Positions 5,838-46,128 of a stretch of 64,000 nt of DNA are shown here, piece by piece. Within the stretch, counting starts at the first letter, position 1, and every line of letters begins with the position of its first letter. Source of the stretch: Patescibacteria group bacterium (GTDB lineage Bacteria > Patescibacteriota > Minisyncoccia > Minisyncoccales > GWA2-38-27); NCBI GenBank assembly GCA_020148045.1, contig JAHCRG010000006.1:9909-73908 (forward strand), given 5' to 3'. The notes beneath the pieces are model-generated. The model saw only the letters and a program-made list of their open reading frames with translations, searched no databases and was not told the DNA's origin. The position numbers were made by a program, and so were the translations under genes.

Positions 5838-5879
5838 ACCCATCACTACCAGAAATCCTACGGATTTTGGTGTGAGGGT
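5838..5879 (+). repeat. REP-like imperfect palindrome R2
   Basis: The sequence acccatcactaccagaaatcctacggattttggtgtgagggt folds as a long hairpin. It has three single-nt bulges (A, T, G) on the 5' arm and a TAC triloop. Confidence 0.9.
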
Positions 5880-5887
5880 AAAAATTT

Positions 5888-6169
5888 ATGGAGAAGATAA
5901 ATAAAAAACAATTTACAGAGGAAGAGGCGAAGAGGATTGGTGAGGAGTTGGGGATTGATTGGAGCAAGTTTGACGTGGAGCAGTTTCGGATGGGATTAGA
6001 TGTGGAGCTGGAGCATGGAACAGTAGATCCAAAGACAAATGTTACTGACGATGATGAAATAATGACTGGCAAGATTGCTCTTGCTCACTTGAATGAATTT
6101 TCAGATTACTACACACGGCTTGAAAAGATGGAAAAAGAGGCAGAAGAATATTGGGAAGGGCTGAAGTAA
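5888..6169 (+). CDS. small acidic conserved hypothetical protein (possibly DUF5661-like)
   Basis: A 93-aa ORF with the motifs LEHGTVDPKTNVT and KIALAHLNEFSDYY. The family name is from memory and unverified. Confidence 0.45.
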   Translation: MEKINKKQFTEEEAKRIGEELGIDWSKFDVEQFRMGLDVELEHGTVDPKTNVTDDDEIMTGKIALAHLNEFSDYYTRLEKMEKEAEEYWEGLK

Positions 6170-6197
6170 AAAATCGCCCTCCGGGCGATTTTTTTGG
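6168..6197 (+). terminator. intrinsic terminator (AAAATCGCC family)
   Basis: The stem aatcgccc/gggcgatt is followed by a T-run. Confidence 0.8.
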
Positions 6198-6461
6198 TGG
6201 AGCGAAGAACTGATATTTTGCAAATCCGAGCATTTCGCTCGGCTTTTTATAAATTGACCCGGCATTATACCTACAATTCTCTTGACAAAGTCCTATCATG
6301 TTATATAACTTTAAGATAGAGTAAAGATAAGAAGAAATTATCTTAATTCAAAGCAATTTAAAAACTTAAAAGGAGATTATAGTGGATAGAAAAATTTGAT
6401 GTGATGTTAGACAGTTTTTAAGATTAGAGTGTTTTTGGTTTTAGACAGAAAGGAGAAAAGA

Positions 6462-7235
6462 ATGAACACAAAACCCAAAACCCTGTTATTTGTGTTTGTT
6501 GCGGCGGGGATGATTTTGTATGGCGGGTGTGCCGTGAGTGCTCCCCTTGTCGAAAAAGAGCCAAAAGAAGGCGTCTATTCGGCAGTAGAGGCAAGGCTCG
6601 TTATGGATCTCGTCTACTATAAGGCCGACCTGGGAAAGAAGATTACGACCACCCCTGTCCATTCAAGTGATTCCGGTTTTTTGTCAGGCGAAACTACAAC
6701 AAAACCTGGCGGGGGAACCACCTTTGCACCCGGTCTGGGTCTGTTCGGCTCAATCGGGACCGAGAACTTGAGGGTTATTGGCGGTATTTCTAGTAGGTGG
6801 AATACGCTGCACCATGAAGACGGCTACCGGGAAGGATTTCACAGCACAAAGCAGCAGGTTTCCGACATCAGGCCGCCATCCAGGGGCTCTTTCGTCTTTA
6901 CCCAACTGGTGCCTGGTACTTTTACCTTCATTCCTTCTGTGGGTCTTGAAGGTAAAATCAGGGAAAATCTTACGATAGGAGCAACTGTGGGCTTTCCTTA
7001 TATGGAATGGACAGCCCGATCAGGCCATGACAGATGGGGCTCTTGGGAAACCGTCCAGGATGACTCCTGGAAGGGTTTCGGTACAAGGTATACCGGAACT
7101 CTTGGCTGGGACTTGAATGATAGCGACAAGATCTTCCTTGGCGTTTTCTGGGAGGAATACCGGCCCGAGTTTGCCGGCGAGGGGGCCGAGATATCTGGTA
7201 TAGGTGGCTTATTTGGTTTTATTCGTAGATGGTGA
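6462..7235 (+). CDS. GC-rich putative lipoprotein, beta-rich with aromatic C-terminus
   Basis: An RBS (aaaggagaaaag) precedes ATG 6462. The signal peptide has a lipobox-like LYGGC. The protein is G/T/S-rich and ends FGFIRRW. One counted line gave about 50% GC. Confidence 0.5.
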   Translation: MNTKPKTLLFVFVAAGMILYGGCAVSAPLVEKEPKEGVYSAVEARLVMDLVYYKADLGKKITTTPVHSSDSGFLSGETTTKPGGGTTFAPGLGLFGSIGTENLRVIGGISSRWNTLHHEDGYREGFHSTKQQVSDIRPPSRGSFVFTQLVPGTFTFIPSVGLEGKIRENLTIGATVGFPYMEWTARSGHDRWGSWETVQDDSWKGFGTRYTGTLGWDLNDSDKIFLGVFWEEYRPEFAGEGAEISGIGGLFGFIRRW

Positions 7236-7354
7236 AGCTACAATCGTCGCCCAGTATGTTTGGGACACATTTTGCGTAAAAAGGGCTGAAGTTTATTCAG
7301 CCCTCTTTTATTTGGGCGTTTTTTGACAATTACAGGGAGGCGCAGCGTAAGCCC

Positions 7355-7383
7355 TTGACAGGTTATTTTAATTGCGCTATATT
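7355..7383 (+). promoter_or_regulatory. sigma70-type promoter
   Basis: TTGACA (7355-7360), a 17-nt spacer, then TATATT (7378-7383). Confidence 0.6.
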
Positions 7384-7388
7384 GCTCA

Positions 7389-7705
7389 ATGGTAATGGGT
7401 GAGCCAGATGAAGAGAGAAAGGTAAAAATAAGTTCAGTTTACAATAACATAAAAAAAAAAGAGCTTGAACTATTAACCTTTTAGCTCTTCATCATTAGGT
7501 TCTTCCCATTAATCACGGGTGAGAAGAGAGGCTGTTAGCGATCGCACAAAGAGGACATCTAGCTTAACCGACTAAGTTATTAATACAAGCAGAGAGAGTT
7601 AATACCCAAACCGGGTATAGATCGTTGCGTGTCTCTCTTTCTCATCCTATTGCTCTTTTAAAAGGGGCTTTTATCAAGCCCTTTTTTATTTGGGCGTTTT
7701 TTGGC
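7389..7705 (+). ncRNA. candidate ~300-nt transcript: leaderless 31-codon ORF (7389-7484) plus a structured 3' region and terminator
   Basis: ATG lies 5 nt after the -10 box. A long-range helix pairs GGGTGAGAAGAGAG (7517) with CTCTCTTTCTCATCC (7634), and AGCGATC pairs with GATCGTT. A conserved box CTCATCCTATTGCTCTTTTAA sits at 7641-7661. The hairpin GGGCTT/AAGCCC is followed by a T-run. Confidence 0.35.
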
Positions 7706-7709
7706 TTGT

Positions 7710-7746
7710 CCTCACACCAAAATTGGAAGATTTCTGGTAGTGATGG
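7710..7746 (-). repeat. REP-like imperfect palindrome R3 (inverted relative to R2)
   Basis: Its reverse complement is ccatcactaccagaaatcttccaattttggtgtgagg. This matches R2 over 18 nt and then 13-14 nt around a variable loop. Confidence 0.9.
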
Positions 7747-22081: not shown

Positions 22082-23221
22082 ATGAAAAAATATATTTTCG
22101 CTATTTTTGTTTTAGGGTTGTTATTTGGTGTTTTTGATTTTGTCTTAGCTCAAGAGAATCTACTTGAGATTAATTTTTTTTATACCAGGGGCTGCCATTA
22201 TTGTGCTGAAGAAAAAAAGTTCTTGAATGAGTTGGAGCAGCAATACCCCCAAATAGAGATAAAAAGATTTGATATTTCCAAAAGGGAAAGCATTGAGTTA
22301 TTAAAGAAATTTTATCAGGAATATGAGGTAGCAAAAGAAGAGTGGGGCTTATTCCCAATTACTTTTACTAGTGAGCGTTATTTCTTGGGCTTTGATAATA
22401 TAATTAGCCAAGAAATAGAATCTTGTATTGAAAAGTGTGTTACTGGTAGAGAACAAGAAATTAAAGAAAAAATTACTCTCCCAATTATTGGTGAAATAGA
22501 TGTCAGGAAGTATTCTTTACCTACACTAGCTGTTATTTTAGGAACTTTGGATGGTTTTAATATTTGTTCTTTAGGGGCTTTGATTTTGATTTTAGGCCTG
22601 GTCTTAGCTCTTCGTTCAAGAAAGAAAACTTTGCTTTTCGGTGGGCTTTTTATCCTGACAACAGCTATTGTCTATGGATTTTTAATAGTTCTTTGGTATC
22701 AAATTTTCTCTTTTCTTGTTCCTTATATGAGAACTATGGAAATTTTAATAGGTCTTTTAGGAATAGGAGCAGGGATTTATTTTTTAAGACAATTTATCAG
22801 ATTTAGGAAATACGGCCCAACTTGTGAAGTAGGTTTAGGAAAAGAAATAATATCAAAATTTTCTTTAAGATTTCAAAAATTTCTTAAAGAACCAGGAAGT
22901 ATTTTATTACTCTTAGGAAGTGTACTTTTATTTGCCGGAATAATTACCATTGTAGAATTTCCTTGTTCAGCTGCGGTTCCCGTTGTTTTTGCTGGTATTT
23001 TATCCCAGTCTCAGCTTCCTGGACTTTTTTATCTTTTATACATTGCTCTTTTTCTCCTCTTTTACATGCTAGATGAAATTATTGTTTTTCTGGTTGCTTT
23101 CTTGACAATGAAAGTTTGGCTTGCTTCAAGCAAAGCAATAACTTGGATTACCTTAACTGAAGCAATAATTCTTTTCCTACTTGGATTTTATTATCTTTTT
23201 GGATTTGGTGCTTTGTTATGA
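22082..23221 (+). CDS. thioredoxin/glutaredoxin-like domain fused to DsbD/CcdA-like thiol-disulfide membrane transporter
   Basis: The N-terminal domain has CHYC. The polytopic part has membrane-embedded Cys residues (FNICSL, EFPCSAAVP). Confidence 0.55.
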   Translation: MKKYIFAIFVLGLLFGVFDFVLAQENLLEINFFYTRGCHYCAEEKKFLNELEQQYPQIEIKRFDISKRESIELLKKFYQEYEVAKEEWGLFPITFTSERYFLGFDNIISQEIESCIEKCVTGREQEIKEKITLPIIGEIDVRKYSLPTLAVILGTLDGFNICSLGALILILGLVLALRSRKKTLLFGGLFILTTAIVYGFLIVLWYQIFSFLVPYMRTMEILIGLLGIGAGIYFLRQFIRFRKYGPTCEVGLGKEIISKFSLRFQKFLKEPGSILLLLGSVLLFAGIITIVEFPCSAAVPVVFAGILSQSQLPGLFYLLYIALFLLFYMLDEIIVFLVAFLTMKVWLASSKAITWITLTEAIILFLLGFYYLFGFGALL

Positions 23222-23793
23222 AAAACATAAACCAAGAACTAAAAGAAATTAAAGAGGAGGTTATAAATTGTAGAAAATGTCCTTTATATAAAACAAGAAC
23301 TTATCCAGTAATCGGAGAAGGAAACCATCAGGCAAAAATAATGTTTGTTGGGGAAGCACCCGGGGTTCAGGAGGATAAAACCGGTCATCCCTTTTGTGGA
23401 GCAGCAGGAAGGATTTTGGATGAGCTTTTAGAATCGGTAGGGATAAAAAGAGAAGATGTTTACGTTACGAATTTGTTAAAGGACAGACCGCCAGGTAATC
23501 GTGATCCTCAAAAAGAAGAAATTGAAGCCTGTGTTCCTTATTTGGAGAGACAAATTGAAATTATCAAGCCAGAAATCATTTGTCCTTTGGGTAGGTATTC
23601 AATGAAATTTTTAATGGAGAAGTTTGACTTAAAAGACGAGATTCAACCAATTAGCAGAATTCATGGGAGAGTTTTTAAAATAAAGGAAGGATTGTCCCTA
23701 ATCCCTCTTTATCATCCAGCAGTAGCAACTTACAACCCAAATATGAAAGAAATTCTAAAAAAAGATTTTAAGATTTTAGAAAAATTTAATTAA
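23218..23793 (+). CDS. udg: uracil-DNA glycosylase, family 4
   Basis: CRKCPLY and GEAPGVQEDKTGHPFCGAAGRIL are present. Confidence 0.85.
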   Translation: MKNINQELKEIKEEVINCRKCPLYKTRTYPVIGEGNHQAKIMFVGEAPGVQEDKTGHPFCGAAGRILDELLESVGIKREDVYVTNLLKDRPPGNRDPQKEEIEACVPYLERQIEIIKPEIICPLGRYSMKFLMEKFDLKDEIQPISRIHGRVFKIKEGLSLIPLYHPAVATYNPNMKEILKKDFKILEKFN

Positions 23794-24697: not shown

Positions 24698-24934
24698 ATG
24701 CCAAGATTTGACCAAACTGGTCCTTTGGGTCAAGGTCCTATGACTGGAAGAGGTTTAGGCCCTTGCGGAGGCGGAATGGGCTATGGCAGAGGCTATGGCC
24801 GTGGCTTTGGCTGGAGAAGATTCTATACCAGAAGAGAGGAAGCGGAAATTTTGAAAGAAGAAACAGAAGTTTTAGAAGAAGAATTAAGAGCAGTTAAAGA
24901 ACGTTTGACTGAACTAAAGGGTCAAAAAAAATAA
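24698..24934 (+). CDS. DUF5320-like Gly/Arg-rich protein with C-terminal coiled coil
   Basis: The N-terminus is MPRFDQTGPLGQGPMTGRGLGPCGGG. Confidence 0.65.
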   Translation: MPRFDQTGPLGQGPMTGRGLGPCGGGMGYGRGYGRGFGWRRFYTRREEAEILKEETEVLEEELRAVKERLTELKGQKK

Positions 24935-25014
24935 AAGAAGGCCGTAAACCTGGCTCCTCCTAAGGGGGGGCCAGGGTAGCCTTCTTATTTAAACAATAAC
25001 ATTAAATTTTGATT

Positions 25015-25290
25015 ATGCCAAGACCAAGACTTTGTAGAAGAATTAGATTTCATCCAAATATAACCTATTTTAAACCTCGAGGTGTACCAATGAGACATTT
25101 GGAGATTGTTGAATTAACTACTGAAGAAGTAGAGGCTTTGAGATTAAAAAATATAAAAGATTTAGATCAGGTTGATTGTGCCAAGCAAATGAAAACATCG
25201 CAGAGTACTTTCCAGAGGATTTTATCATCTGCTTACAAAAAAATTACAGAGGCCTTAATAAAAGGCAAGGCAATTCAGATAAAAAAGTAG
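25015..25290 (+). CDS. DUF134 (UPF0251) putative DNA-binding protein
   Basis: PRPRLCRRIRFHPNITYFKPRGVP is present, with a sigma-70 region-4-like HTH at the C-terminus. Confidence 0.75.
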   Translation: MPRPRLCRRIRFHPNITYFKPRGVPMRHLEIVELTTEEVEALRLKNIKDLDQVDCAKQMKTSQSTFQRILSSAYKKITEALIKGKAIQIKK

Positions 25291-25310
25291 AGACCGGGTC
25301 TCTACTTTTT
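25287..25310 (+). terminator. intrinsic terminator TAGAGACCGGGTCTCTA (stop codon in stem)
   Basis: An identical 17-nt hairpin recurs at 63082-63098. Confidence 0.85.
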
Positions 25311-25358
25311 GATTAGTAGGTGAAAACTACTTTTTTGTTTTTGGAGCGAGTTTTTTGA

Positions 25359-26489
25359 TTAATCTCCAGGAGGAGGTAAAGTAATATCCTCGGGTTCGAA
25401 GATAACTTTTCTCTCACCTTCTTCCACTATACCAAGATCAATTAAATGGTAATTAGATTTTTCGCCAGTATTAATAGTCCTCTCTACAGCAGATGGGGGC
25501 ACGAACATGTAGTAACCAATTCCCCAGTTAAAAGTTGTAAGACAATCTTCCAGCCCTACCCCAAGTTCTCGCATAAACAGAAATAAAGGAGGTATTTCTT
25601 TTACCCAAGTATGGATACGGTAAGTGAGCCGCCGTTTATCAAAGGCTATCTTGCTTACACCACTACCAGTACCTGGCAAAAGAGCATGGATTTCTATCTC
25701 GTTTTCTAATAGCGCTTCAACCAGAGCTACATATGACCTGGTAGGAATAAGGGCTTCTTCTCCAAGCGTCCTACCAGTGGCAGGTAATTTGGTAAGAAAT
25801 TTTTCTGGAAGCATTAGAGCACGTTTGATAACAAGCGAAATCCCGTTGGCGTGTAAGCCCGAAGACGTAACACCGATTATATGATCACCCGGTTGCAATT
25901 TTTCTCCAGTGATAAGTCGATGGGATGGAGCAATAATCCCGGTAACGCAACCACTCAAAGAGGGAGCACTTTTTACGGGTCGCTTAGATTTGATTAAATA
26001 ACGGAGAGAAGGAGACTCGCCTGCGGGTAGGGCCATACCAACCATTTTGCATACTTTTAAAAAACCATTAGCTAAATCTTCGCTCCTTTTTTCATCTTGA
26101 AACCACTCGCTATCACCGGCAGCGACTTCGTCAGTGTAGACAACCGGCATTGCCCCTTGAGCAATTACATCATTCACCGCCATCAGGGCAGTATCCACGC
26201 CGATGTCATTATAGAAAGTTTTACCTGTGCCAGAAAACTGATACATCCATTCAGAAATCCAATTCTTATTTCCAAGACCTTCCTGAGTGTTGCACCAGAG
26301 GTGAGGATGGTTGCCCCGGTATTCATAGACAGCTCCATGGGGGTCTATTAAATCCATACGAATAAAGACCTTCCGTCGATTGGGAAAACTTAATGTTTGC
26401 TTTCCTGTTCTTATCATTGCTCGTTTAAAAGCTTCGATTTTACTGTAATCTACGCCAGCTTGAGCATAAGCACTTTTTTTCTTTGCCAT
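25359..26489 (-). CDS. AIR synthase-related (PurM-like) protein, divergent
   Basis: GVDTALMAVNDVIAQGAMPVVYTDEVA and LPAGESPSL match the PurM/AIRS fold. The canonical DGVGTK motif is replaced by QEGLGNK. ATG at 26489 follows aaaggg. Confidence 0.65.
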   Translation of the reverse strand: MAKKKSAYAQAGVDYSKIEAFKRAMIRTGKQTLSFPNRRKVFIRMDLIDPHGAVYEYRGNHPHLWCNTQEGLGNKNWISEWMYQFSGTGKTFYNDIGVDTALMAVNDVIAQGAMPVVYTDEVAAGDSEWFQDEKRSEDLANGFLKVCKMVGMALPAGESPSLRYLIKSKRPVKSAPSLSGCVTGIIAPSHRLITGEKLQPGDHIIGVTSSGLHANGISLVIKRALMLPEKFLTKLPATGRTLGEEALIPTRSYVALVEALLENEIEIHALLPGTGSGVSKIAFDKRRLTYRIHTWVKEIPPLFLFMRELGVGLEDCLTTFNWGIGYYMFVPPSAVERTINTGEKSNYHLIDLGIVEEGERKVIFEPEDITLPPPGD

Positions 26490-26500
26490 TTTTATCCCTT

Positions 26501-26743
26501 TCAATGATACCGTATTGTCATACTTGTAATTCCCCTTGATCCTTTTCGAGGTGTAAAGCCAAAATATTTTTTGAATTCATAAATGGCCATCTCGTCTATT
26601 TTACGTACTCCATTTGAAGAATACCACCGGCCCTCAGTTTTTTTTAATTCTGCTTTTATAGGCCAACGGCGAATCCAAGATTCAGAAGAAGACTCGCTTG
26701 GATTGTCTCTTGTTACAATAAATTCCTTTGTGATTATCTTCAT
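26501..26743 (-). CDS. hypothetical 80-aa protein, tightly coupled upstream of the PurM-like gene
   Basis: The RBS is aaagggg. Its stop lies 11 nt before the PurM-like ATG. I recognise no motif. Confidence 0.4.
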   Translation of the reverse strand: MKIITKEFIVTRDNPSESSSESWIRRWPIKAELKKTEGRWYSSNGVRKIDEMAIYEFKKYFGFTPRKGSRGITSMTIRYH

Positions 26744-26791
26744 TTTCTACCCCTTTCAATTATAAATGAACAGTTTTCTTTTTCCAATGCT

Positions 26792-26819
26792 ATTTTAATT
26801 ATTATGATAAATTTGTCAA
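26792..26819 (-). promoter_or_regulatory. sigma70-type promoter (minus strand)
   Basis: The minus strand reads TTGACA, a 16-nt spacer, then TAAAAT. Confidence 0.6.
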
Positions 26820-26832
26820 CTGAAATTTAAAG

Positions 26833-26861
26833 AAAGCCCGTTTTATAAAACGGGCTTTTTT
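26833..26861. terminator. bidirectional intrinsic terminator after purL
   Basis: The sequence is AAAGCCCG-ttttataaaa-CGGGCTTTTTT. Confidence 0.8.
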
Positions 26862-26890
26862 ATCAACAAGATTGTGTTTCGTTGATACTA

Positions 26891-29800
26891 TTAATGTTCT
26901 TCACACCATTTTCTGGCGTTTTGGAAAAGTTTTAGCCAGGGGGAAACTTTGAGCTTTGGCCATTTTCTTGACCAATAAAACCATTGCCAGAAAGTGAATA
27001 ATCTTTCAGGGTGAGGCATCATTGCCAAGTGCCTACCATCAGGTGAACACAAAGCAGTAATACCCAGGATTGAACCATTGGGATTGTAAGGATATCTCAT
27101 TGTGGGAACTCCGTCATCATCAACGAAGCGAAGGGGAGCCAAGTTTTTCTCCAGGACCTCCTTAAGAATCGAGTCGCTAGGGAAGAAACAACGACCCTCG
27201 CTGTGAGCTACCCAGATACCGAGAACTGAGCCCTCCATATCCTGGAGCATTAACGCTGGGCTGGGCATGACTTTAACTGCTATAGGTCGCGATTCGAAGA
27301 TTCTTGATTCATTCCGGACAAAACGCGGCTGTTTTATTAGCTCAATGCCTGGCCGAGGTATCCAACCGAGAAAAGGCATAACCTGAGAGCCATTACAGAC
27401 ACCCAGAGAAAAAGTGTCTGGCCGAGAGTAGAAGTTTTCAAACTCTTTTTGGACTCGCTCGTTGGTCTTAATTACCCAAGCCCAACCTTTGCCTGCATCC
27501 AAAACATCTGCGTAACTGAAGCCACCTGAGAAAGCAATGCCTCGAAAATCATTCAAGCTAATTCTTCCTTCAACCAAATCAGTCATGGTAACATCCCAGG
27601 CCTCAAAACCGGCAGCATCGAAAGCTCCAGCCATTTCCTTATCTCCGTTAGTGCCTACTTCACGGAGAATAGCCACCTTTGCTTGCTTAACTTTCATCTT
27701 TATCTCCGGGGTTGCTTCGGGCTTAAAGCGAAGCTCTAGAGGAAGGCCTTTCCGGTCATAAGTATTTTTCCTTTCAGCTTCTACACAGGCCGGATTGGCT
27801 TGGAGTTTATCCAGCCGATAGGAAGTTTCTTGCCATATGTTTCGAAGTTTTCTCATATCTTCAGACAAGACAGGCTGACCTTTGTGATGAATCTTTATCT
27901 GATAATCATTAGTGGTACGTCCGAGTATATGGCAGCAACCCTCTAGTCCTTGGCCTAGCAAGAATCTCAGGATTCTCCTTTCATCTTTGGGCAGATATTC
28001 AATGACTAGGCCTAACTCTTCTGAGAAAAGTATAGGTAGGATGTTTGTTTTCCAAATAGGCCTGCGAAAGCTAATATACAAACCACAGTTTCCCGCAAAA
28101 GCCATCTCTAAGAGGCAGGTTATTAAACCACCATCAGAACGGTCATGGCCAGCTAAGATTAAATCCCTCCTGATTAGCTCTTGAATCGCTTCAAATCCCT
28201 GACGCAAAATTTGGGGATTTTCAACATCAGGGGCTTGATTACCAATCTGATTGTGAACCTGAGCTAAGGCTGAGCCCCCGAGTCGCTGCTTGTCCCTGGA
28301 AAGGTCAATTAACATCAATTTGCTTTGACCCGGCATTTTAATATCTGGGGTGACAACTCTAGTAATATCTGGGCAGGGGGCAAAACTAATCATTTGGACA
28401 GTGCCTGGTGACTTAACAGGATGTTTCTGGTCATTTTTGGTAGTCCAGGCAGTCATTGAGACGGAATCCTTGCCAACTGGAATTCGCAGTCCCAACTTAC
28501 GGCAGAGACCGCTAGTTGCTTTAACTGCTTCATAAAGCCGGGCATCTTCACCTGGCTGCTTGCAAGGCCATTGCCAGGTAGCTGAAAAGTTAATTGACTC
28601 AAAGCTTTCAACCAGTGCCCAGACCAGATTGGTTAAAGATTCACCTAGGCTCATTCTTCCTCCGGCTTTTGGATTAACCAGACCTTTAATTGGCTGTTCA
28701 CCAATAGCCATTGCTGTACCAGTAGTTACAAAGAAGCTATCAGCAGTTACAGCACAGTCAGCCAAGGTAAGTTGGCAGGGCCCAACTGTTTGTTGCTGAG
28801 CAACCAAACCACCTACTGAACGGTCAACCTTGCGAGTTAGGAATTGTTTTGAAGCAACCTTTGGCAAACGAAGAACTCGCTCTAAGGCCTTCATAACTGT
28901 TAATCCTTCTGGTAGTTGAAGTGGTTTAAGTTGGCGGAGTATCTTTTGGCACTTGATAGTCATCTGAGGTAAATTAGCCAGCAGGAAATTCATATCAACA
29001 TCAATGGGTATTTTTTGCTCCCGAGGTGCGTCATCGGGGGCTGAGCGGTCAGTGACCACCAATTTCCCATCACCAGTAATTTCTCCAACCACATACATTG
29101 GGCAACGATTTCGCTGACAGATTTTTCGCAATGTTTCTAATCTCTCTGGCCAGACAATCATTACCATACTCTCTTGGGACTCATTGCACCAGAAGACATA
29201 GACAGGCATGGTTTTATCTCCGCAGGGAATCTCCCGGAGTTCATAGCGGGCTCCAGCAGGAAAACTAATTTCAGGTAGGGCTACACTTTCACCACCAGCT
29301 CCTAAGTCAGTAGTGCTGACAATAGGATTTTCGTCTCCTAATTCTGAGCAGGCCTGAAAGACATCATTCATTCGATTTTCCATTTCCGGATTAGCCCGCT
29401 GGACTGAATTCCAGTCAAGTTCTTCCTCTTGAGCACCAGCATCTTTGCTTGAACCAGAACCTCCACCCAAACCAATCCAATATCTGTCTCCACCCAACTG
29501 AACAACTGGATACCCCTTTTCGGGCTTCATTTTATAGGCATGTTTCTCGTCAATATAGCCAAAGTTCCCAGCCACCATACAAGTTTTTCTCCAGCCATGG
29601 TGTTCTTTGCCAATCATTTGTTCAAACGAAGTAAAAGAGCCCAAGATTACTGGCTGTCCGAACATGTTGCCATAGTAACTGGCTCCATTGGAAGCTTGGA
29701 TGATAATCTCTAAAGGTGTTTGGAAACGCTTGGGATGGGACGCATACTCTTTTTCCCAAAGTAAAATATAATCTGGGATAAAGAGATTGGCTACATAATA

Positions 29801-30826
29801 ACAAGCTAAACCAACAGTCACGATGCCTCCTCTGCCAGTACCCATTGGATCGCGGATAACACCCCCGAGACCGGTTGCTGAACCATCATAGGCGTCGATA
29901 GCTGTTGGATGGTTATGGGTCTCGACCTTGGCAAGAATGCAGGAGCTTATGGGTCGGCAGGCAAAAGGCGAGGGCCTGGTAGGGTCTGATGTCACAAGTG
30001 CTGTTACCGGCCTCCCGGAAAGCACAGCAGCATTATCAGTATAGGCAACCAGGACATTAGCTTGATTTGCTTCGGTCGTTGCCTTAATCATGCCAAAAAG
30101 AGTGTCGGGCATTTCTTGGCCGTCAATAATATATTTTCCGTTGAAACGGTGATGCCGGCAGTGCTCAGAATTAAGCTGGCCAAACATGAACAATTCAGCA
30201 TCAGTAGGATTACGCCCTATCTTTTTGCAGTACTGATGGATATACTCTGCCATTTGTTCATCTATTGCTAAGCCTAACTGCTCATTAGCTTGTTTAATAG
30301 CCTTGACTCCTTTTTCCAGAAGAGGAATTAGCTGAACTGGTGCTGGTTTTACATCTATCTCAAAGCTGGTTACTGGCTCTGGATAAACTTGTTCTGTCAT
30401 TCGGTCATGAATCAAGGCATAAATTTGCTTCCGTTGGGCAGAAGTAAGAAGAGAATTCCCTCTGGTTGTAATCTGAAAACGTCGGTTAGTTTCTATTCTG
30501 GTAACTAAGTCTAATTCACAAGCATGGCAGATAGAAACTGCGCTGGTGCTTTGGGGAGAAACCCAGGCTAAACGAGGACCAGCCTCGAATACTGGTTCAG
30601 CTAATCTGGTCTGACTTCCGAATTTTTCTGGTTCAAAAGTCTCACGCAGTAGCCCTTCCAAGCGCTCTAATTCTCCGGACCTAAAGGGCCTCTTAGAATC
30701 AACATAGAATCTTCGTTCAATCTTAACCCCTTCAATTAATGGCGAAACTTCTTTCTTAAGATCTTTTAACCATAACTGTTCTTCAATCTCCCAAAGTTTT
30801 GAAGTTCGAAAACGTGAAACAATCAT
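26891..30826 (-). CDS. purL: phosphoribosylformylglycinamidine synthase, single-chain large form
   Basis: A 1311-aa protein with FGAM synthase core motifs and a C-terminal amidotransferase (GVCNGSQ nucleophile, MMPHPER). Confidence 0.95.
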   Translation of the reverse strand: MIVSRFRTSKLWEIEEQLWLKDLKKEVSPLIEGVKIERRFYVDSKRPFRSGELERLEGLLRETFEPEKFGSQTRLAEPVFEAGPRLAWVSPQSTSAVSICHACELDLVTRIETNRRFQITTRGNSLLTSAQRKQIYALIHDRMTEQVYPEPVTSFEIDVKPAPVQLIPLLEKGVKAIKQANEQLGLAIDEQMAEYIHQYCKKIGRNPTDAELFMFGQLNSEHCRHHRFNGKYIIDGQEMPDTLFGMIKATTEANQANVLVAYTDNAAVLSGRPVTALVTSDPTRPSPFACRPISSCILAKVETHNHPTAIDAYDGSATGLGGVIRDPMGTGRGGIVTVGLACYYVANLFIPDYILLWEKEYASHPKRFQTPLEIIIQASNGASYYGNMFGQPVILGSFTSFEQMIGKEHHGWRKTCMVAGNFGYIDEKHAYKMKPEKGYPVVQLGGDRYWIGLGGGSGSSKDAGAQEEELDWNSVQRANPEMENRMNDVFQACSELGDENPIVSTTDLGAGGESVALPEISFPAGARYELREIPCGDKTMPVYVFWCNESQESMVMIVWPERLETLRKICQRNRCPMYVVGEITGDGKLVVTDRSAPDDAPREQKIPIDVDMNFLLANLPQMTIKCQKILRQLKPLQLPEGLTVMKALERVLRLPKVASKQFLTRKVDRSVGGLVAQQQTVGPCQLTLADCAVTADSFFVTTGTAMAIGEQPIKGLVNPKAGGRMSLGESLTNLVWALVESFESINFSATWQWPCKQPGEDARLYEAVKATSGLCRKLGLRIPVGKDSVSMTAWTTKNDQKHPVKSPGTVQMISFAPCPDITRVVTPDIKMPGQSKLMLIDLSRDKQRLGGSALAQVHNQIGNQAPDVENPQILRQGFEAIQELIRRDLILAGHDRSDGGLITCLLEMAFAGNCGLYISFRRPIWKTNILPILFSEELGLVIEYLPKDERRILRFLLGQGLEGCCHILGRTTNDYQIKIHHKGQPVLSEDMRKLRNIWQETSYRLDKLQANPACVEAERKNTYDRKGLPLELRFKPEATPEIKMKVKQAKVAILREVGTNGDKEMAGAFDAAGFEAWDVTMTDLVEGRISLNDFRGIAFSGGFSYADVLDAGKGWAWVIKTNERVQKEFENFYSRPDTFSLGVCNGSQVMPFLGWIPRPGIELIKQPRFVRNESRIFESRPIAVKVMPSPALMLQDMEGSVLGIWVAHSEGRCFFPSDSILKEVLEKNLAPLRFVDDDGVPTMRYPYNPNGSILGITALCSPDGRHLAMMPHPERLFTFWQWFYWSRKWPKLKVSPWLKLFQNARKWCEEH

Positions 30827-30841
30827 ATCTTTTCTCCTTTC

Positions 30842-30871
30842 CCAACCTATGGTTGGTCAGCCGTAGGCTGA
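30842..30871 (-). repeat. double-hairpin 30-mer, copy 1 (5' UTR of purL)
   Basis: The plus strand reads ccaacctatggttggtcagccgtaggctga. The minus strand reads TCAGCC-TAC-GGCTGA-CCAACC-ATA-GGTTGG. It is identical to 46006-46035. Confidence 0.95.
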
Positions 30872-30949
30872 TTTTCCAAAAAATATTGTCAATGAGCTAC
30901 TTGCCCCGCACCGAAGTTGTTCTGGTGCGGAGTTCGCATACGATACTCA

Positions 30950-31011
30950 ACCATAGAAAATTTTATATTGTTTGTCAAATTTTTTGACAAAGTTTGGAAA
31001 TTTGCTAAGAT
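30950..31011. promoter_or_regulatory. divergent purL/purC promoters sharing a 21-bp palindrome
   Basis: The plus strand has TTGACA (30984-89), a 16-nt spacer, then TAAGAT. The minus strand has TTGACA (30978-73), a 17-nt spacer, then TATGGT. The palindrome is tttgtcaaa-ttt-tttgacaaa (30971-30991). Confidence 0.55.
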
Positions 31012-31069
31012 AATTCATTAACTAATAGTTCTTTGAGTTTTTAATAATTGAATTAGAAAGGAGATAGAG

Positions 31070-31978
31070 ATGAAGCAGACGATAATAATAAGAACAATGG
31101 TTTCAGGACACAAACGCAGACAGGGTAAGGTTAGAGATATTTATAATCTCGGAGATGGCAGATTAGTTATTATTGCCACTGACCGGATTTCGGCTTTTGA
31201 TGTGGTTATGGAAAATGGTATTCCTGATAAAGGAAAAGTACTGACTGCACTTACTAAGTTCTGGCTGCAAAAACTTCAGTCTGTGGCTTCGCCGCACCAT
31301 CTTGTGAGTACAGAGCTTGATCGTCTTCCAGAGGAGTTTCAAAGAGAATGTTTTGAAGGCAGAGTTATGGTTTGTCGAGAAGCAGAGCCCTTACCTGTTG
31401 AGTGTGTGGTCCGAGGATACTTAGCTGGTAGTGGTTGGAAAGAGTATCAAAAGACAGGTCAGATTTGTGGCATTAAGCTTCCTTCAGGATTAAAGCAATG
31501 TGACAAATTGCCAGAACCAATTTTTACTCCAGCAACTAAAGCTCAAGCTGGCCATGATGAGAATATTACATTTGAAGATGTTTGTAAGTTATTAGCTAAT
31601 CGATCCCTAGCAGAAAGCTTGAGAGATAGAAGCATAAATCTATACCGAAAGGCGCATGATTTTGCGTTGAAGCGGGGTGTTATCATTGCTGATACCAAGT
31701 TTGAGTTTGGTAGAGTTGATGGTACAATTCTCCTTATTGACGAGGTATTGACTCCAGATTCCAGTAGGTTTTGGCCTGTTGATGAATATGAACCAGGTCA
31801 TGACCAGGTAAGCTTTGACAAACAGTTTGTCCGTAACTATTTAGAGACGCTCTGCGAGAATGGCAAATGGGATAAAACTCCTCCTGGGCCAAGATTGCCT
31901 GACACTATTGTTGCAGGAACATGGAACAGATATCGAGAACTTTACAGACGTTTAACGAGAAAAGATTTAAAGCCCTGA
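31070..31978 (+). CDS. purC: phosphoribosylaminoimidazole-succinocarboxamide (SAICAR) synthase
   Basis: GKVRDIY and ATDRISAFD are present. It is the long form of about 300 aa. The RBS is aaaggagat. Confidence 0.9.
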   Translation: MKQTIIIRTMVSGHKRRQGKVRDIYNLGDGRLVIIATDRISAFDVVMENGIPDKGKVLTALTKFWLQKLQSVASPHHLVSTELDRLPEEFQRECFEGRVMVCREAEPLPVECVVRGYLAGSGWKEYQKTGQICGIKLPSGLKQCDKLPEPIFTPATKAQAGHDENITFEDVCKLLANRSLAESLRDRSINLYRKAHDFALKRGVIIADTKFEFGRVDGTILLIDEVLTPDSSRFWPVDEYEPGHDQVSFDKQFVRNYLETLCENGKWDKTPPGPRLPDTIVAGTWNRYRELYRRLTRKDLKP

Positions 31979-31996
31979 TTATAAAATTGGGGTTTG

Positions 31997-32036
31997 CCCT
32001 CACACCAAAATTTTGGTAGTGAGGGCTTGTTTTTTT
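31997..32036 (-). repeat. REP-like palindrome R4 acting as the purC terminator
   Basis: ccctcacaccaaaattttggtagtgaggg is followed by a T-run. The arms match R2/R3 with the inner hairpin absent. Confidence 0.85.
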
Positions 32037-32084
32037 ATTTTGAAAATTATAAAATAGAATATTACAAGTAATTTTAATAAAACT

Positions 32085-33578
32085 ATGAGTAAAAAAATAA
32101 TTTTAATAATTGTTATCGTCGTTGTTTTAGGTGTTATTATTTACCAGTTTTTCATTAAAGACGAAGAGCCAGAATTTGCTTTGGAAAAAGTAGTTATAGG
32201 TATGGTCTTAAAAGAAGTTTCAGAAACTGGAACAGTTAAAATTTCAGAAGAGATAAATCTTAGTTTTAAGAATTCAGGAAGAATTGATGAGATATATGTT
32301 AAAGTTGGAGATAATGTTGAAGCTGGCCAGAAGCTGGCTAAACTTGATACGAGTCAGTTATATATTGAACTAACTGAAGCTCAGGCTGCTCTTGAAGTAG
32401 CCCGGGCAAAAAAAACAGATACCGAGATTTCTCTTAAAAATGCTGAACAGAATTTAAAAGATGTAAAAGCTGATGCTGAGGAAGATTTAAATAGCGCTTG
32501 TGAGGATGCTCTTAATGTTTTAGATGATTCTTATTTGAAAACTTACGATGCCTATAATGCAGTTTATGAAATTCAGCGAGATTATTTTACTTCCTTTGAT
32601 GAAAAATCAACAGAAGTAATAGAAGAAAAGTATAAAATTAAGAGTGATTTAGAGAGGATTGAAGCTTATGTTAATGATGCTAAAAACAACCCCCAAGAGG
32701 AGAATATTGATTTAATCCTTTCTAAAGTAAAAGAGCAATTAGAGGCGGTGAGTAATTCCTTAGAAATAGTTCGAGATATTACAGAAAGCGAAGCTTACCG
32801 CAGTTCTGTTTCAACCACTGACAAAACATCTTTAGATACTCAAAGAACAAACATAATTAATGTTATCGCTGATATTGTTAATGCCCAGCAAACTATTTCA
32901 ACAACTAAAATTGTTAACGAGACCAATATTAATAATGCTGAAGCGGAAAGTTCTTTAATTAAAAACAAGTTACAAGAAGGCGGTTTATATCAAGCGCAAA
33001 TAAGCCAAGCTCAAGCTAAAGTTTCTCTTTTGCAGAATAAAATTCAAGAAGCTGTTCTAAAAAGTTTTAATGGGGGGCAAATAATAAAAATTAATAAAAG
33101 AGAAGGAGAAGTAGTTCAGCCAACCGATTCTGTAATTTCTTTTCTCTCGGTCGGCCCTTTTCAAATAGAAGTAGATATTTATGAAGAAGATATTGTTGAC
33201 GTTAAAGTTAATAATCCGGTAGAGATTACTTTGGCTGCTTTTTCCGATGAGATTTTAAAAGGCAGAGTAATTTCAATTGACCCGGCAGAAAAGTTGATTG
33301 GAGGAATAGTTTATTATGGAATAACTATTGACTTTGAGGAAACCAAGGAGGGGATTAAACCGGGCATGACAGCTGACATTATTATTGAAAGTGATAAAAA
33401 GGAAAATGTATTAGTTATTCCAAAAAGGGCAGTAAAGAAAATGGATGGCAAAAAAATAGTTCAGGTTTTTAAGGACGGCGAGGTTAAAGAACGAGAAATA
33501 GAAATCGGCTTGGAAGGAGACGAGTTTTTTGAAATTATTTCTGGATTAAGCGAAGGAGAGGAAGTTGTTATTGAATAA
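32085..33578 (+). CDS. HlyD/MacA-type periplasmic adaptor (membrane fusion) protein
   Basis: An N-terminal TM helix, a lipoyl-like motif GRIDEIYVKVGDNVEAGQKLAKLD and a long coiled coil. Confidence 0.75.
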   Translation: MSKKIILIIVIVVVLGVIIYQFFIKDEEPEFALEKVVIGMVLKEVSETGTVKISEEINLSFKNSGRIDEIYVKVGDNVEAGQKLAKLDTSQLYIELTEAQAALEVARAKKTDTEISLKNAEQNLKDVKADAEEDLNSACEDALNVLDDSYLKTYDAYNAVYEIQRDYFTSFDEKSTEVIEEKYKIKSDLERIEAYVNDAKNNPQEENIDLILSKVKEQLEAVSNSLEIVRDITESEAYRSSVSTTDKTSLDTQRTNIINVIADIVNAQQTISTTKIVNETNINNAEAESSLIKNKLQEGGLYQAQISQAQAKVSLLQNKIQEAVLKSFNGGQIIKINKREGEVVQPTDSVISFLSVGPFQIEVDIYEEDIVDVKVNNPVEITLAAFSDEILKGRVISIDPAEKLIGGIVYYGITIDFEETKEGIKPGMTADIIIESDKKENVLVIPKRAVKKMDGKKIVQVFKDGEVKEREIEIGLEGDEFFEIISGLSEGEEVVIE

Positions 33579-45151: not shown

Positions 45152-45976
45152 TTATTTTGAGTTTATCTTAAATTGATCTATGAGATTTAAGTCAGCATCA
45201 AATACATCTACAACCAATTGATTATCAGTAATAGACAATCTGCAGAAATGATGAACTTTTATAAATAATTGGCTGTAAGGACTTGTTCGTGCTTGGTCAT
45301 AAAGAGGGGCTCCTCCTCCACCGGTAATAATATAATAAATATCATTATATAATAATTTTTCATAAGCATGGGTATGTCCATTGAAAACTATATCTACACC
45401 ATATTGTTCAAATAAAGGCACAATCGTCTGTCTAAGTCCTTTTTCATCTTCAGGGTGTGGGCCAGTGCTTAAAGGTGGATGGTGAAAGATTACTATGGTA
45501 AATTTGATTTTGTCGCTAATATTTCTTAAATCAGATTCAAGCCATTTATATTGTTCTGAATCCTTGCTGTTATCAGAATTGCTATCCAATACAATAAAAT
45601 GGATATCATTTTTTTCTACAGAGTACCATTGTTCATTGTTTGGTAAATCAAATTTATCAAAAAACAATTGAGAATTACCTTCGTGGTTTCCTAAAGCAGG
45701 ATAAAACTCCGCAGTTTTAGTTAATTCGGAAGTTATCGCATTAAAGATTGCCCACTGGTCGGGATCTGCGCCGTCTTCTACAAGATCGCCTGCGTGGAAG
45801 ACAACCGTGGGTTTTATTCCTGCAATGGCATTTACAATTTTTTGGTGAGCAGCGTGACCAGTTCGACTATCTCCGTAAATAACAAAGGTTTCTAAGGAAG
45901 GTTGGTATAGAAACCAAAATAATACAGCGGCAATTAAAATTACAATTGCTGCTAATAATAATTTTTTGAGTTTCAT
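45152..45976 (-). CDS. calcineurin-like metallophosphoesterase, membrane-anchored
   Basis: The motifs GDSRTG, GDLVEDG, GNHE, HHPP and GHTHAYE are present. Confidence 0.85.
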   Translation of the reverse strand: MKLKKLLLAAIVILIAAVLFWFLYQPSLETFVIYGDSRTGHAAHQKIVNAIAGIKPTVVFHAGDLVEDGADPDQWAIFNAITSELTKTAEFYPALGNHEGNSQLFFDKFDLPNNEQWYSVEKNDIHFIVLDSNSDNSKDSEQYKWLESDLRNISDKIKFTIVIFHHPPLSTGPHPEDEKGLRQTIVPLFEQYGVDIVFNGHTHAYEKLLYNDIYYIITGGGGAPLYDQARTSPYSQLFIKVHHFCRLSITDNQLVVDVFDADLNLIDQFKINSK

Positions 45977-46052: not shown

Positions 46053-46126
46053 GTCGGGGCACCCGGACTTGAACCGGGAATCACGCGCACCCCATGCGCG
46101 TATGTTATCCAATTACACCATGCCCC
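46053..46126 (-). tRNA. tRNA-Pro (anticodon GGG)
   Basis: A manual cloverleaf fits. Acceptor CGGGGCA/TGCCCCG, D-arm GTGT/ACAT, anticodon stem CGCGC/GCGCG with loop AT-GGG-GT, T-arm CCCGG-TTCAAGT-CCGGG and discriminator A. It is 74 nt with no encoded CCA. Confidence 0.85.
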
Positions 46127-46128
46127 GA

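Follow-up and report, generated by a model that had tools for sequence, protein, structure and literature searches.

How does a Patescibacteria chromosome come to carry, with an MFP/ABC-exporter operon on one side and a ZIP transporter gene on the other, a compact block of genes for a large PurL, a PurM-like protein, PurC and a small ORF of 80 residues, and do these genes serve purine biosynthesis or something else? The stretch of DNA analyzed here, 64,000 nucleotides in length, is referred to as the window. An earlier sequence-only reading had described the block, and the ORFs that it listed, the raised GC content, a perfect 9-3-9 palindrome and a REP-like hairpin are indeed all present in the sequence. 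The same gene arrangement recurs in two other public assemblies (L001 and L002). From the gene identities, the breakpoints, the discordant divergence and the gene contexts in relatives, all of which were observed directly, we arrive at an explanation that we consider probable: three purine biosynthesis enzymes and an unrelated orphan ORF would share a mosaic, recombination-prone site. The ORFs of the block are:

25359..26489, minus strand: variant PurM (AIR synthetase-like), 376 aa when counted from its ATG; a TTG at 26504 is the start of the listed ORF
26501..26743, minus strand: putative orphan ORF of 80 aa, basic and rich in tryptophan, its stop 11 nt before the ATG of the PurM-like gene
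26891..30826, minus strand: single-chain FGAM synthetase (large PurL) of the A-type, 1311 aa, TIGR01735
31070..31978, plus strand: SAICAR synthetase PurC of the PRK13961 type, NF010568, PF01259

PurL reaches 1484.4 bits with TIGR01735 (cut-off 1123.05) and thus passes the equivalog threshold; with NF003672 it reaches 1449 bits (cut-off 783). N-domain, linker, FGAM-synthetase halves and C-terminal glutaminase are all present in one chain, with five Pfam domains in the order PF18076, PF18072, PF02769 (two copies), PF22689 and PF13507, and this architecture together with the TIGR01735 score bears out the earlier assignment to the single-chain form. The motifs GVCNGSQ and HPE occur at residues 1142 and 1272, and we take the cysteine of the former and the histidine and glutamate of the latter to be the glutaminase catalytic residues, as in class I amidotransferases. 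PurC matches NF010568 with 414.4 bits (cut-off 251) over residues 9–300 of 302 and PF01259 with 257.8 bits. Both proteins thus score above curated family cut-offs, and their catalytic motifs appear intact.

The PurM-like protein is more divergent. The N- and C-terminal AIRS domains (PF00586 and PF02769) are both found above their gathering scores, the match to TIGR00878 stays below the cut-off (154.5 versus 236.35 bits), and the profile of the variant family to which the protein belongs aligns full-length with the solved PurM structure 9jzy (positions 7–363, E=2e-37). The protein contains the motifs DVIAQGAMP (residue 107), EGLGNK, AGES, SSGLHANG and GTGSG. The first of these fits DX4GAXP, the nucleotide-binding motif of the PurM superfamily. 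The protein had been said to lack DGVGTK, which holds for the canonical motif, whereas the region itself is present and has diverged to QEGLGNK, a sequence that is invariant across the family. An AlphaFold2 model of the variant (pLDDT 56, from a shallow alignment of near-identical sequences) was too poor for a fold search. Scans of PHROGs and viral contigs with the PurM variant and the 80-aa ORF revealed generic AMG families as the only link to phages, and the variant family was not found on viral contigs.

On this basis, the block would encode working enzymes for three steps, namely FGAM synthetase for step 4, a variant AIR synthetase for step 5 and SAICAR synthetase for step 7. Steps 4, 5 and 7 without step 6 do not make a pathway, and homologues of PurF, PurD, PurN, PurK, PurE, PurB and PurH are absent from the 64-kb window; the remaining pur genes presumably lie elsewhere in the genome. 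It had been assumed that CPR bacteria usually lack the pathway. At least 17 of the CPR loci that were fetched carry large pur operons, which speaks against the assumption, as does a survey in which de novo purine synthesis was scored complete in 32% of 399 CPR MAGs (PMC11608272). Could the three genes then be what is left of an eroding pathway in a host-dependent CPR bacterium that has given up de novo synthesis? Incomplete nucleotide pathways are frequent in CPR genomes (PMC11809585), the other pur genes are missing from the window, and one relative (L094) has lost every pur gene at this site. The three ORFs are, however, intact and retain their catalytic motifs, the PurM-like gene is under purifying selection (omega 0.22 in the comparison with the related locus L091), and purL and purC, each equipped with its own promoter and terminator, resemble gains rather than relics. 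We therefore regard a pathway remnant as unlikely.

Information about the genetic environment of the PurM variant was obtained from a survey of 80 GTDB loci. The gene is located in a pur operon or beside purL in 21 of the 80 loci, beside a gene for a half-size mini-PurL in 39, and without any pur neighbor in 17, among them the complete 689-kb Nealsonbacteria genome L003. Further members occur in the complete genomes OY970382.1, CP070825.1 and CP070801.1, and the pairing with mini-PurL extends to other phyla and to one archaeon (DPANN). A canonical PurM was not encoded within 10 kb of any family member. The locus L035 is particularly instructive: a single stretch encodes PurL, F, N, D, E, C, B, the PurM-like protein and PurH, and the variant is the sole PurM homologue there. 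Judged from such contexts, the variant appears to take the place of PurM in the complete pur operons that many CPR genomes carry; an enzymatic activity as AIR synthetase is what we infer for it. It would then be a form of PurM that does PurM's job, is widely distributed, evolves under strong constraint and moves horizontally.

The suggestion that the module had been repurposed has to be weighed against this background. In such a case, PurM-like protein, PurL and PurC would act together on a substrate other than FGAM and catalyze a new ATP-dependent cyclization or amidation. A score below the PurM equivalog cut-off, the change from DGVGTK to QEGLGNK, the unusually tight conservation across phyla (67–84% identity), the non-canonical half-size PurL as partner in 39 of the 80 loci, the occurrence alone in 17 of them and the window devoid of other pur genes could all be read in this way. 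On the other hand, the variant is the only protein to occupy the PurM slot in operons that encode all other steps, the relative L093 has a canonical PurM (314 bits, though truncated) at the equivalent position downstream of an A-type PurL, the ATP- and substrate-binding motifs of the PurM-like protein all have conservative counterparts, and its gene adjoins that for a PurL which passes the equivalog cut-off. Repurposing accordingly has a small probability in our view; what the locus documents is gene swapping at one site and no new chemistry.

A broader proposal is tentative, and we hold it to be possible yet doubtful: the PurM variant and its partner may constitute an unrecognized, horizontally mobile alternative module for steps 4 and 5 of purine synthesis. 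Mini-PurL (about 365 aa) would correspond to the first AIRS half of PurL alone and would presumably be homodimeric and perhaps ammonia-dependent, the pair of mini-PurL and variant AIR synthetase would cross phyla and domains at 73–83% identity, and in CPR lineages, including the one studied here, recombination would have brought the variant PurM together with ordinary PurLs. A stronger version would have the pair act on a wholly different substrate. A literature search for the PurM variant family or the half-size PurL returned nothing relevant.

Returning to the explanation of a mosaic of ordinary purine enzymes, we compared the window with four related CPR loci (L091, L093, L094 and L096), with L092 considered alongside L091. 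The features relevant for this comparison are:

25279..25313, unstranded: hairpin between the convergent DUF134 and PurM-like genes, 17-nt arms, 94% complementary
26792..26819, minus strand: promoter-like site of ORF80 and the PurM-like gene, TTGACA-16-TAAAAT, 11 of 12 matches, inside a stretch homologous to L091
26826..30871, minus strand: putatively replaced segment as delimited by the L091 breakpoints, i.e., the purL cassette (RBS-proximal hairpins, purL, terminator)
26833..26858, minus strand: terminator-like hairpin of the purL cassette, 11-bp stem and T-rich tail, directly 3' of the purL stop
30827..30945, minus strand: structured purL leader with three hairpins, MFE -38.8 kcal/mol, z=-3.9
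30950..30978, minus strand: promoter-like site of purL, TTGACA-17-TATGGT, conserved in L091 and L093
30971..30991, unstranded: perfect 9-3-9 palindrome TTTGTCAAA-ttt-TTTGACAAA, formed by two -35 boxes arranged back to back at the junction of the purC insertion
30979..32042, plus strand: purC cassette, comprising promoter, purC and hairpin, which is an insertion when compared with L091 and L093
30984..31011, plus strand: promoter-like site of purC, TTGACA-16-TAAGAT, TG-extended
31997..32025, unstranded: REP-like hairpin CCCTCACACCAAAA/TTTTGGTAGTGAGGG followed by a T-run, 3' of purC

In L091 and L092, DNA identity to the window is 93% for ORF80 plus the PurM-like gene and 95% for the purL leader, whereas their PurL proteins are only 39–41% identical to that of the window and purC is absent. 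Homology to L091 breaks off at 30872 and begins again at 26825, with a 39% identical PurL in between; it ends at 25339, beside the hairpin that separates the DUF134 and PurM-like genes. A B-type PurL (83% identical to that of L091) followed by the PurM-like gene and the ZIP gene is found in L096, and L094 holds only MFP, ORF80 and ZIP at this site. In a quick neighbor-joining distance tree, as opposed to a maximum-likelihood tree, the window PurL forms one clade with proteins from Sedimentisphaerales/Planctomycetota at 100% bootstrap, and the L091 protein falls into a distant clade. The closest relatives of the window PurL are 62–68% identical and comprise proteins of Planctomycetota (Sedimentisphaerales) as well as unnamed metagenome proteins; no donor above 68% identity was found. 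The notion of an acquired module thus stands up for purL and purC. An in-situ xenologous replacement of the relatives' purL allele is supported by the sequence comparison, as is a recent date for what would be the acquisitions of both purL and purC at this locus. L091 was considered as the lineage that had replaced its purL, and this was dropped in view of L096 as a second lineage with B-type PurL and PurM-like protein. The direction, an A-type purL displacing in situ the B-type purL carried by relatives, is deduced by parsimony over four loci, and the A-type PurL of L093 would also permit the opposite direction.

Synonymous divergence adds a further layer. Between the window and L091, dS amounts to 0.48 for MFP, 0.16 for the PurM-like gene and 0.06 for ORF80; with L094, it is 1.43 for ZIP, 1.27 for p379 and 0.18 for ORF80. 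Because its synonymous divergence from relatives is far below that of the flanking genes, the ORF80-PurM-like segment would have been exchanged between lineages.

Is transfer needed at all in order to explain the GC content of the block? It amounts to 43.1% versus 35.7% in the remaining window, and the GC-richest 4-kb stretch of the window (26901–30900) has a GC content of 0.451 compared with a median of 0.363 and 0.407 for the next best stretch elsewhere. Part of this excess is driven by amino acids (GC1 0.54 and GC2 0.42 in purL). The block could then have been inherited vertically, its GC content raised by conserved enzymes rich in Gly, Ala and Arg: EF-Tu and EF-G show a similar rise in GC1 and GC2, GC3 of the PurM-like gene (0.345) and purC (0.317) lies within about one standard deviation of the window mean (0.286, sd 0.048), and PurL (67% identity) and MFP (59%) are similarly diverged between the window and L093. 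This is nevertheless highly improbable when the 39% identical PurL within flanking DNA of 93–95% identity in L091, the differing presence of purC between relatives, the 3–8-fold difference in dS between segment and flanks and the GC3 of purL (0.396, i.e., +2.3 sd) are taken into account.

The small ORF upstream of the PurM-like gene had been assigned to the same transcription unit, and a functional tie to PurM finds no support in the comparison, in which the ORF is present without pur genes in L094 and absent between the PurL and PurM-like genes of L096. It has no match in Pfam, NCBIfam or PHROG, only three homologues among 5.8 billion clusters and none in a JGI metagenome scan; AlphaFold2 gave a pLDDT of 40 and a model too poor for a fold search. 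Omega is 1.2 in comparison with L091 and about 0.5 with L094. A PurS-like subunit was considered and rejected in view of the lacking Pfam PurS match and the occurrence without pur genes in L094. The ORF would thus be an orphan unrelated to the purine genes.

Window positions 32043–32089 match L091 1218–1264, positions 30872–30978 match L091 1286–1391, and in L091 just 21 bp separate the two segments that flank the purC cassette in the window. L093 has a 319-bp spacer between MFP and purL and likewise no purC. From these alignments, purC appears to be a lineage-specific promoter-gene-terminator insertion. The protein is only 37% identical to PurC of CPR operons, and a donor search yielded cluster representatives of at most 58% identity, mostly unnamed and including one Acidobacteriota cluster, and no nameable donor. 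The REP-like hairpin downstream is probably the purC terminator; stem and TTGTTTTTTT tail are evident in the sequence, and the site is not among the matches of a consensus terminator scan. Other copies of this repeat family lie at 2529, 5840–5878 and 7709–7746, with paired arms at 5840/5865, 7709/7733 and 31997/32012 and 12 motif matches versus 5.4 expected, and a 135-bp relative is present in L091.

The palindrome between purL and purC contains TTGACA in either strand, accompanied by plausible -10 boxes, and had been taken for an obvious operator. Such an operator would allow a dedicated purine regulator to control the two divergent promoters, those of purL and purC, together; a perfect 9-3-9 symmetry over both -35 boxes is the geometry typical of repressor sites, and an exact palindrome copy is not expected by chance. 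Each arm, however, equals TTGACAAA, which occurs 15 times where 5.8 occurrences are expected, is found upstream of numerous genes (that for EF-Tu among them) and is the generic (extended) -35 motif of this genome. The palindrome is single-copy in the 64-kb window even when three mismatches are allowed, a regulator gene does not adjoin it, homology to L091 stops within it at 30978, and the orthologous purL promoters of L091 and L093 have one arm only. Because it is not conserved, the palindrome is unlikely to be an operator, and a dedicated regulator acting through it has a slim chance in our estimate. Insertion of purC beside the purL promoter may instead have created the palindrome out of two generic -35 boxes. 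The distal part of the purL leader is 95% identical in L091. A conserved riboswitch in the leader was considered and rejected, as the homologous leader of L096 lacks the first hairpin and the L093 leader is unrelated. Rfam searches (whole window at the gathering threshold; the purL/purC intergenic and ORF80 regions at permissive E-values) returned only noise and therefore no riboswitch or known leader.

Taken together, the site between the MFP/ABC-exporter operon and the ZIP gene would be prone to recombination, and the locus a mosaic of cassettes, every one of which is self-contained and comes with a TTGACAAA-type promoter and a hairpin terminator of its own. An integrase or transposase is not encoded among the neighbors of the block, the only tRNA of the window is located at 46053, and an integron attC site was not seen at the borders, where generic TTGACAAA promoters and REP-like hairpins are the only recurrent features. 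Much of the window is thereby demystified, with what look like ordinary purine-synthesis enzymes, a palindrome as probable by-product of two generic promoters and a seemingly unrelated small ORF. What emerges is an unusually clean, breakpoint-resolved candidate case of in-situ xenologous replacement and cassette insertion affecting core metabolic genes in CPR, with a bearing on how reduced CPR genomes acquire and shed biosynthetic capacity. NCBI's PurM model does not recognize the PurM variant family, whose members commonly bear annotations such as 'hypothetical' or 'AIR synthase-related'; where a survey of pathway completeness relies on models of this kind, purine synthesis may consequently be counted as incomplete in CPR, in Aminicenantes and in further lineages.

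Among known systems, the large PurL of Salmonella and E. coli (TIGR01735/NF003672) shares the full five-domain architecture including GATase_5 with the window protein, which differs in residing in a CPR genome whose relatives hold a 39%-identical allele at the site. Canonical PurM (TIGR00878; PDB 9jzy, 1cli) has the two-domain AIRS fold family, the full-length alignment, DX4GAXP, SSGxHxNG, the C-terminal FNxGxG and the pathway context in relatives in common with the PurM-like protein, whereas the latter is only about 28–29% identical, has extra insertions and shows the changes DGVGTK to QEGLGNK, GGET to AGES and ITGGG to GTGSG. A precedent for a divergent PurM of about 390 aa annotated only as putative is provided by the Bacteroidetes type (PDB 3mdo, 3kiz), of which the variant profile matches just the C-terminal domain (E=4e-13 and 8e-10), its similarity to canonical and archaeal PurM being far greater. 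The pur operons of CPR bacteria of the Paceibacteria/Kaiserbacteria type also use the PurM variant (about 70–73% identity), and they combine it with a split PurL (about 980 aa) plus PurQ, a PRK12607-type PurC, PurE/K/B and others, unlike the window with its large PurL, PRK13961-type PurC and no further pur gene within 64 kb. Known cassette systems at recombination hot spots differ by the integrase, integron attC site, tRNA or transposase that the borders of the block lack, but, just as in xenologous in-situ displacement at such hot spots, a distant but functionally equivalent allele is found here between conserved flanks.

The block consists of four genes, all found at the positions where a sequence-only reading had placed them, including the close spacing of the 80-aa ORF and the PurM-like gene:

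25359-26489, minus strand: PurM-like gene, 376 aa counted from the ATG, hereafter the PurM variant
26501-26743, minus strand: 80-aa ORF (ORF80), its stop 11 nt ahead of the PurM-like ATG
26891-30826, minus strand: PurL, 1311 aa
31070-31978, plus strand: PurC, divergent from purL

The raised GC content noticed in that reading was confirmed, with 43.1% in the block versus 35.7% in the remaining window and with purL as the highest-GC 4-kb stretch of all (45.1%). GC3 is clearly raised in purL only (0.396 versus a window mean of 0.286, sd 0.048; 0.345 for the PurM-like gene and 0.317 for purC), and amino-acid composition accounts for part of the GC excess, GC1 and GC2 being high as in EF-Tu. The window is cellular Patescibacteria chromosome; it carries a ribosomal-protein cluster at 48-64 kb, and its gene arrangement recurs in two further public assemblies. 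No integrase, transposase or tRNA was found at the block borders. Across positions 1-64000, nearly all genes lie on the plus strand and GC skew is steadily positive, the main strand exceptions being the purL/ORF80/PurM-variant trio (negative GC skew at 26-31 kb), a metallophosphoesterase gene (45152-45976) and tRNA-Pro (46053-46127).

The general picture that emerged from a comparison with four relatives, which have flanking MFP/ABC-exporter and/or ZIP genes in common, is that the locus appears to be a mosaic of ordinary purine genes and a variant PurM.

Gene order in the window and at related CPR loci (A and B, the two purL alleles; MFP, gene of the MFP/ABC-exporter operon; ZIP, ZIP transporter gene; p379, flank gene)
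Window: MFP, purC, purL(A), ORF80, PurM variant, DUF134, DUF5320, ZIP, UDG, p379
L091/L092: MFP, purL(B), ORF80, PurM variant
L096/L095: purL(B), PurM variant, ZIP, p379
L093: MFP, purL(A), canonical PurM
L094: MFP, ORF80, ZIP, p379

The DUF5320 and DUF134 genes (24698-25290) and UDG (23218-23793), which occupy the interval from the PurM variant to ZIP/p379 in the window, are missing from the equivalent interval of L094, L095 and L096 and thus add to the indels at this variable site.

PurL reaches 1484 bits on TIGR01735 (cut-off 1123), has all five Pfam domains complete and keeps the glutaminase motifs GVCNG and HPE; these features identify it as a genuine single-chain FGAM synthetase, as already proposed. 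The DNA of the window and L091 is 93% identical across ORF80 and the PurM variant (26825-25339) and 95% identical across the purL promoter and leader (30872-30978), whereas the PurL proteins encoded between these stretches share just 39% identity, which points to replacement of the intervening segment:

~26826-30871, minus strand: replaced purL segment, complete with RBS-proximal hairpins and a terminator hairpin of its own
26858-26833, minus strand: terminator hairpin, inside the replaced segment
26819, minus strand: strong promoter-like site for ORF80, beyond the purL terminator hairpin

B-type PurL accompanies the variant in two lineages (L091 and L096, whose PurL proteins are 83% identical), and by parsimony the A-type purL of the window would be the derived allele, having displaced a resident B-type allele in situ. 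In a distance tree with bootstrap, the clade of the window PurL (100% support) holds Sedimentisphaerales/Planctomycetota proteins with 62-66% identity to it and unnamed proteins at 67-68%, including that of the CPR locus L093; a Uhrbacteria protein branches deeper, and the L091 protein lies in a distant clade with one from Doudnabacteria. The GC content of the putative donor loci (~49%) fits the high GC3 of purL. Three hairpins (z=-3.9) form in the purL 5' leader (~30826-30945, minus strand), for which Rfam gave no match. The two next to the RBS (TCAGCCTACGGCTGA, CCAACCATAGGTTGG) would have arrived with the A-type cassette; the distal one is common to L091 and missing in the homologous L096 leader.

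PurC scores 414 bits on NF010568 (cut-off 251). Just 21 bp separate the homologues of window 32043-32089 and 30872-30978 in L091, and the MFP-purL spacer of L093 (~290-319 bp) is devoid of purC. Relative to both loci, purC therefore presents itself as an insertion:

~30979-32042, plus strand: inserted unit of TTGACA-16-TAAGAT promoter, purC and REP-like hairpin

PurC of the window is only 37% identical to PurC of CPR operons, and no donor can be named, since the closest of 1.84 billion cluster representatives do not exceed 58% identity and are mostly unnamed. The L093 spacer (644-962) has tRNA-like ends (GGGTGCGGGATTCGAACC ... GGTTCGTATCCCGTACCA), and ARAGORN detected no tRNA or tmRNA in it.

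The insertion bears on the palindrome TTTGTCAAAtttTTTGACAAA (30971-30991) between purL and purC, which had been taken as an obvious operator candidate. It is indeed a perfect 9-3-9 palindrome with TTGACA on both strands and plausible -10 boxes 16-17 nt away, and a search for further copies showed that it occurs only once in the window. The purL-side arm and the promoter TTGACA-17-TATGGT are kept in L091 and L093; the second arm is present in the window only, and homology to L091 stops within the palindrome. Furthermore, the arm motif TTGACAAA has 15 copies in the window versus 5.8 expected, a number never reached by shuffles, mostly directly upstream of genes and in sense orientation (EF-Tu, ORF80 and several more).

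Examples of the extended -35 motif TTGACAAA in the window
6282, 8390, 12891, 17810, 19964, 26819 (minus strand), 30978 (minus strand), 30984, 50528

A regulator may bind this perfectly symmetrical element. Because the arm motif is enriched upstream of genes and the second arm is confined to the window, the palindrome is nevertheless most readily explained by two generic extended -35 boxes that purC insertion beside the purL promoter would have put back to back, and a dedicated operator is not supported. TTGACAAA also precedes every cassette in the related loci.

The REP-like element recognized earlier at the right edge of the block is a hairpin after purC, one member of a small group of repeats whose arms read CC[CA]TCAC..CCAAA / TTTGG..GTGAGGG.

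Copies of the hairpin repeat (those in the window intergenic and after gene ends)
2529-2542
5840-5878
7709-7746
31997-32025, after purC
L091 1083-1217

The L091 copy, MITE-like and 135 bp long, has the same termini; it is inserted right at the beginning of the MFP gene, which then starts at a GTG inside the element. Two REP-like hairpins also bracket the region (flanks 5840-7746) of a 268-aa ORF (6429-7235, plus strand) with the most deviant composition in the window, beyond that of purL (GC 0.50, GC3 0.52). The protein has no Pfam match; an N-terminal signal/lipobox-like LYGGC and the C-terminal ...GFIRRW recall an outer-membrane protein or lipoprotein. Given the bracketing hairpins, this region is possibly another acquired cassette.

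ORF80 matches no family, has only three homologues and no relatives among viral or JGI-metagenome sequences, and its predicted fold is not confident (pLDDT 40). A role as purine-pathway component is ruled out by L094, which carries ORF80 without any pur gene and whose homology to the window ends exactly at the PurM-variant start codon, and by L096, which lacks ORF80 between PurL and the PurM variant. Its omega values are 1.2 versus L091 (14 nonsynonymous and 3 synonymous changes) and ~0.5 versus L094, next to 0.22 for the neighboring PurM variant. ORF80 could be a small protein under weak constraint; alternatively, its nucleotide sequence could be conserved for some other reason. Between the window and L091, dS is 0.48 for MFP, 0.16 for the PurM variant and 0.06 for ORF80; between the window and L094, it is 1.43 for ZIP, 1.27 for p379 and 0.18 for ORF80. 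The ORF80(-PurM) segment thus has a much more recent common ancestry than its flanks, which points to its passage between related CPR lineages by recombination.

Beyond purL, the PurM variant and purC, the 64-kb window contains no further pur genes, in line with the first reading. Steps 4, 5 and 7 by themselves fall short of a pathway, as the route from PurM to PurC requires at least PurE. We lean toward the remaining genes being located elsewhere in the genome, since none of the three genes is disrupted, purifying selection acts on the PurM variant, and purL and purC resemble gains, not relics. De novo purine synthesis was scored complete in 32% of 399 CPR MAGs (PMC11608272) and is missing in other CPR lineages (PMC11809585).

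The PurM variant belongs to a widespread and tightly conserved family. A protein search returned 1889 matches, the best 120 clusters all being 69-84% identical, and GTDB representative genomes yielded 143 matches, every one 67-77% identical, in many CPR lineages, Aminicenantes, Acidobacteriota, Aerophobetes, Planctomycetota, Desulfaltia, 'Clostridia' MAGs and an Aenigmatarchaeota chromosome. When 80 variant loci were sorted by gene context, 39 had the variant adjoining a half-size PurL of 363-376 aa (mini-PurL; L028 8884-9987, L064 8889-9989, L010 11166-12296, L097 3710-4813 and 35 other loci), 21 had it in a pur operon or adjoining a true PurL, 17 had no pur neighbor, and three were left unassigned. 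Mini-PurL comprises just the first AIRS N+C half of PurL, its match to small PurL being confined to the first half (TIGR01736 positions 51-351 of 718), and has a CxCGKC stretch. It is paired with the variant in Aminicenantes, Acidobacteriota, Planctomycetota, Desulfaltia, Aerophobetes and the Aenigmatarchaeota chromosome, amid housekeeping genes that differ between loci. Median identity is 72% for the variant versus 57-60% for its operon partners PurC, PurE and PurB, and outside CPR both members of the pair are conserved at 73-83% identity between phyla and domains, which indicates strong constraint and suggests joint transfer. No description of the variant family or of a half-size PurL was found in the literature; although it lies outside the window, the pair is the most promising lead.

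The sequence-only reading had left two options, an acquired module or one repurposed for another chemistry. Acquisition stands for purL, given its 39% allele between flanks of 93-95% DNA identity and its position in the tree, and for purC, given the insertion. Repurposing finds no support, as the variant takes the place of PurM in pur operons. CPR operons with the variant encode validated PurF, PurD, PurL, PurQ, PurK, PurE, PurC and PurB together with recognizable though divergent PurN and PurH, L035 combines PurL, F, N, D, E, C, B, the variant and H in one stretch, and no canonical PurM was found within 10 kb of the variant at any examined locus. Mainly on this operon context, the variant probably does the PurM job in purine synthesis. 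The main caveat to so simple a role is the stand-alone loci, which include a closed 689-kb Nealsonbacteria genome. The protein contains both AIRS domains but, with 154.5 bits, stays below the 236.35 cut-off of the PurM equivalog model; the family profile aligns full-length to solved PurM structures (best 9jzy, E=2e-37). Compared with canonical PurM, the variant keeps DX4GAXP (DVIAQGAMP), while GGET is changed to AGES, SSGxHSNG to SSGLHANG and ITGGG to GTGSG. DGVGTK, previously described as lacking, is replaced by QEGLGNK; since every PurM motif has a counterpart in the variant, this motif has diverged and is not missing.
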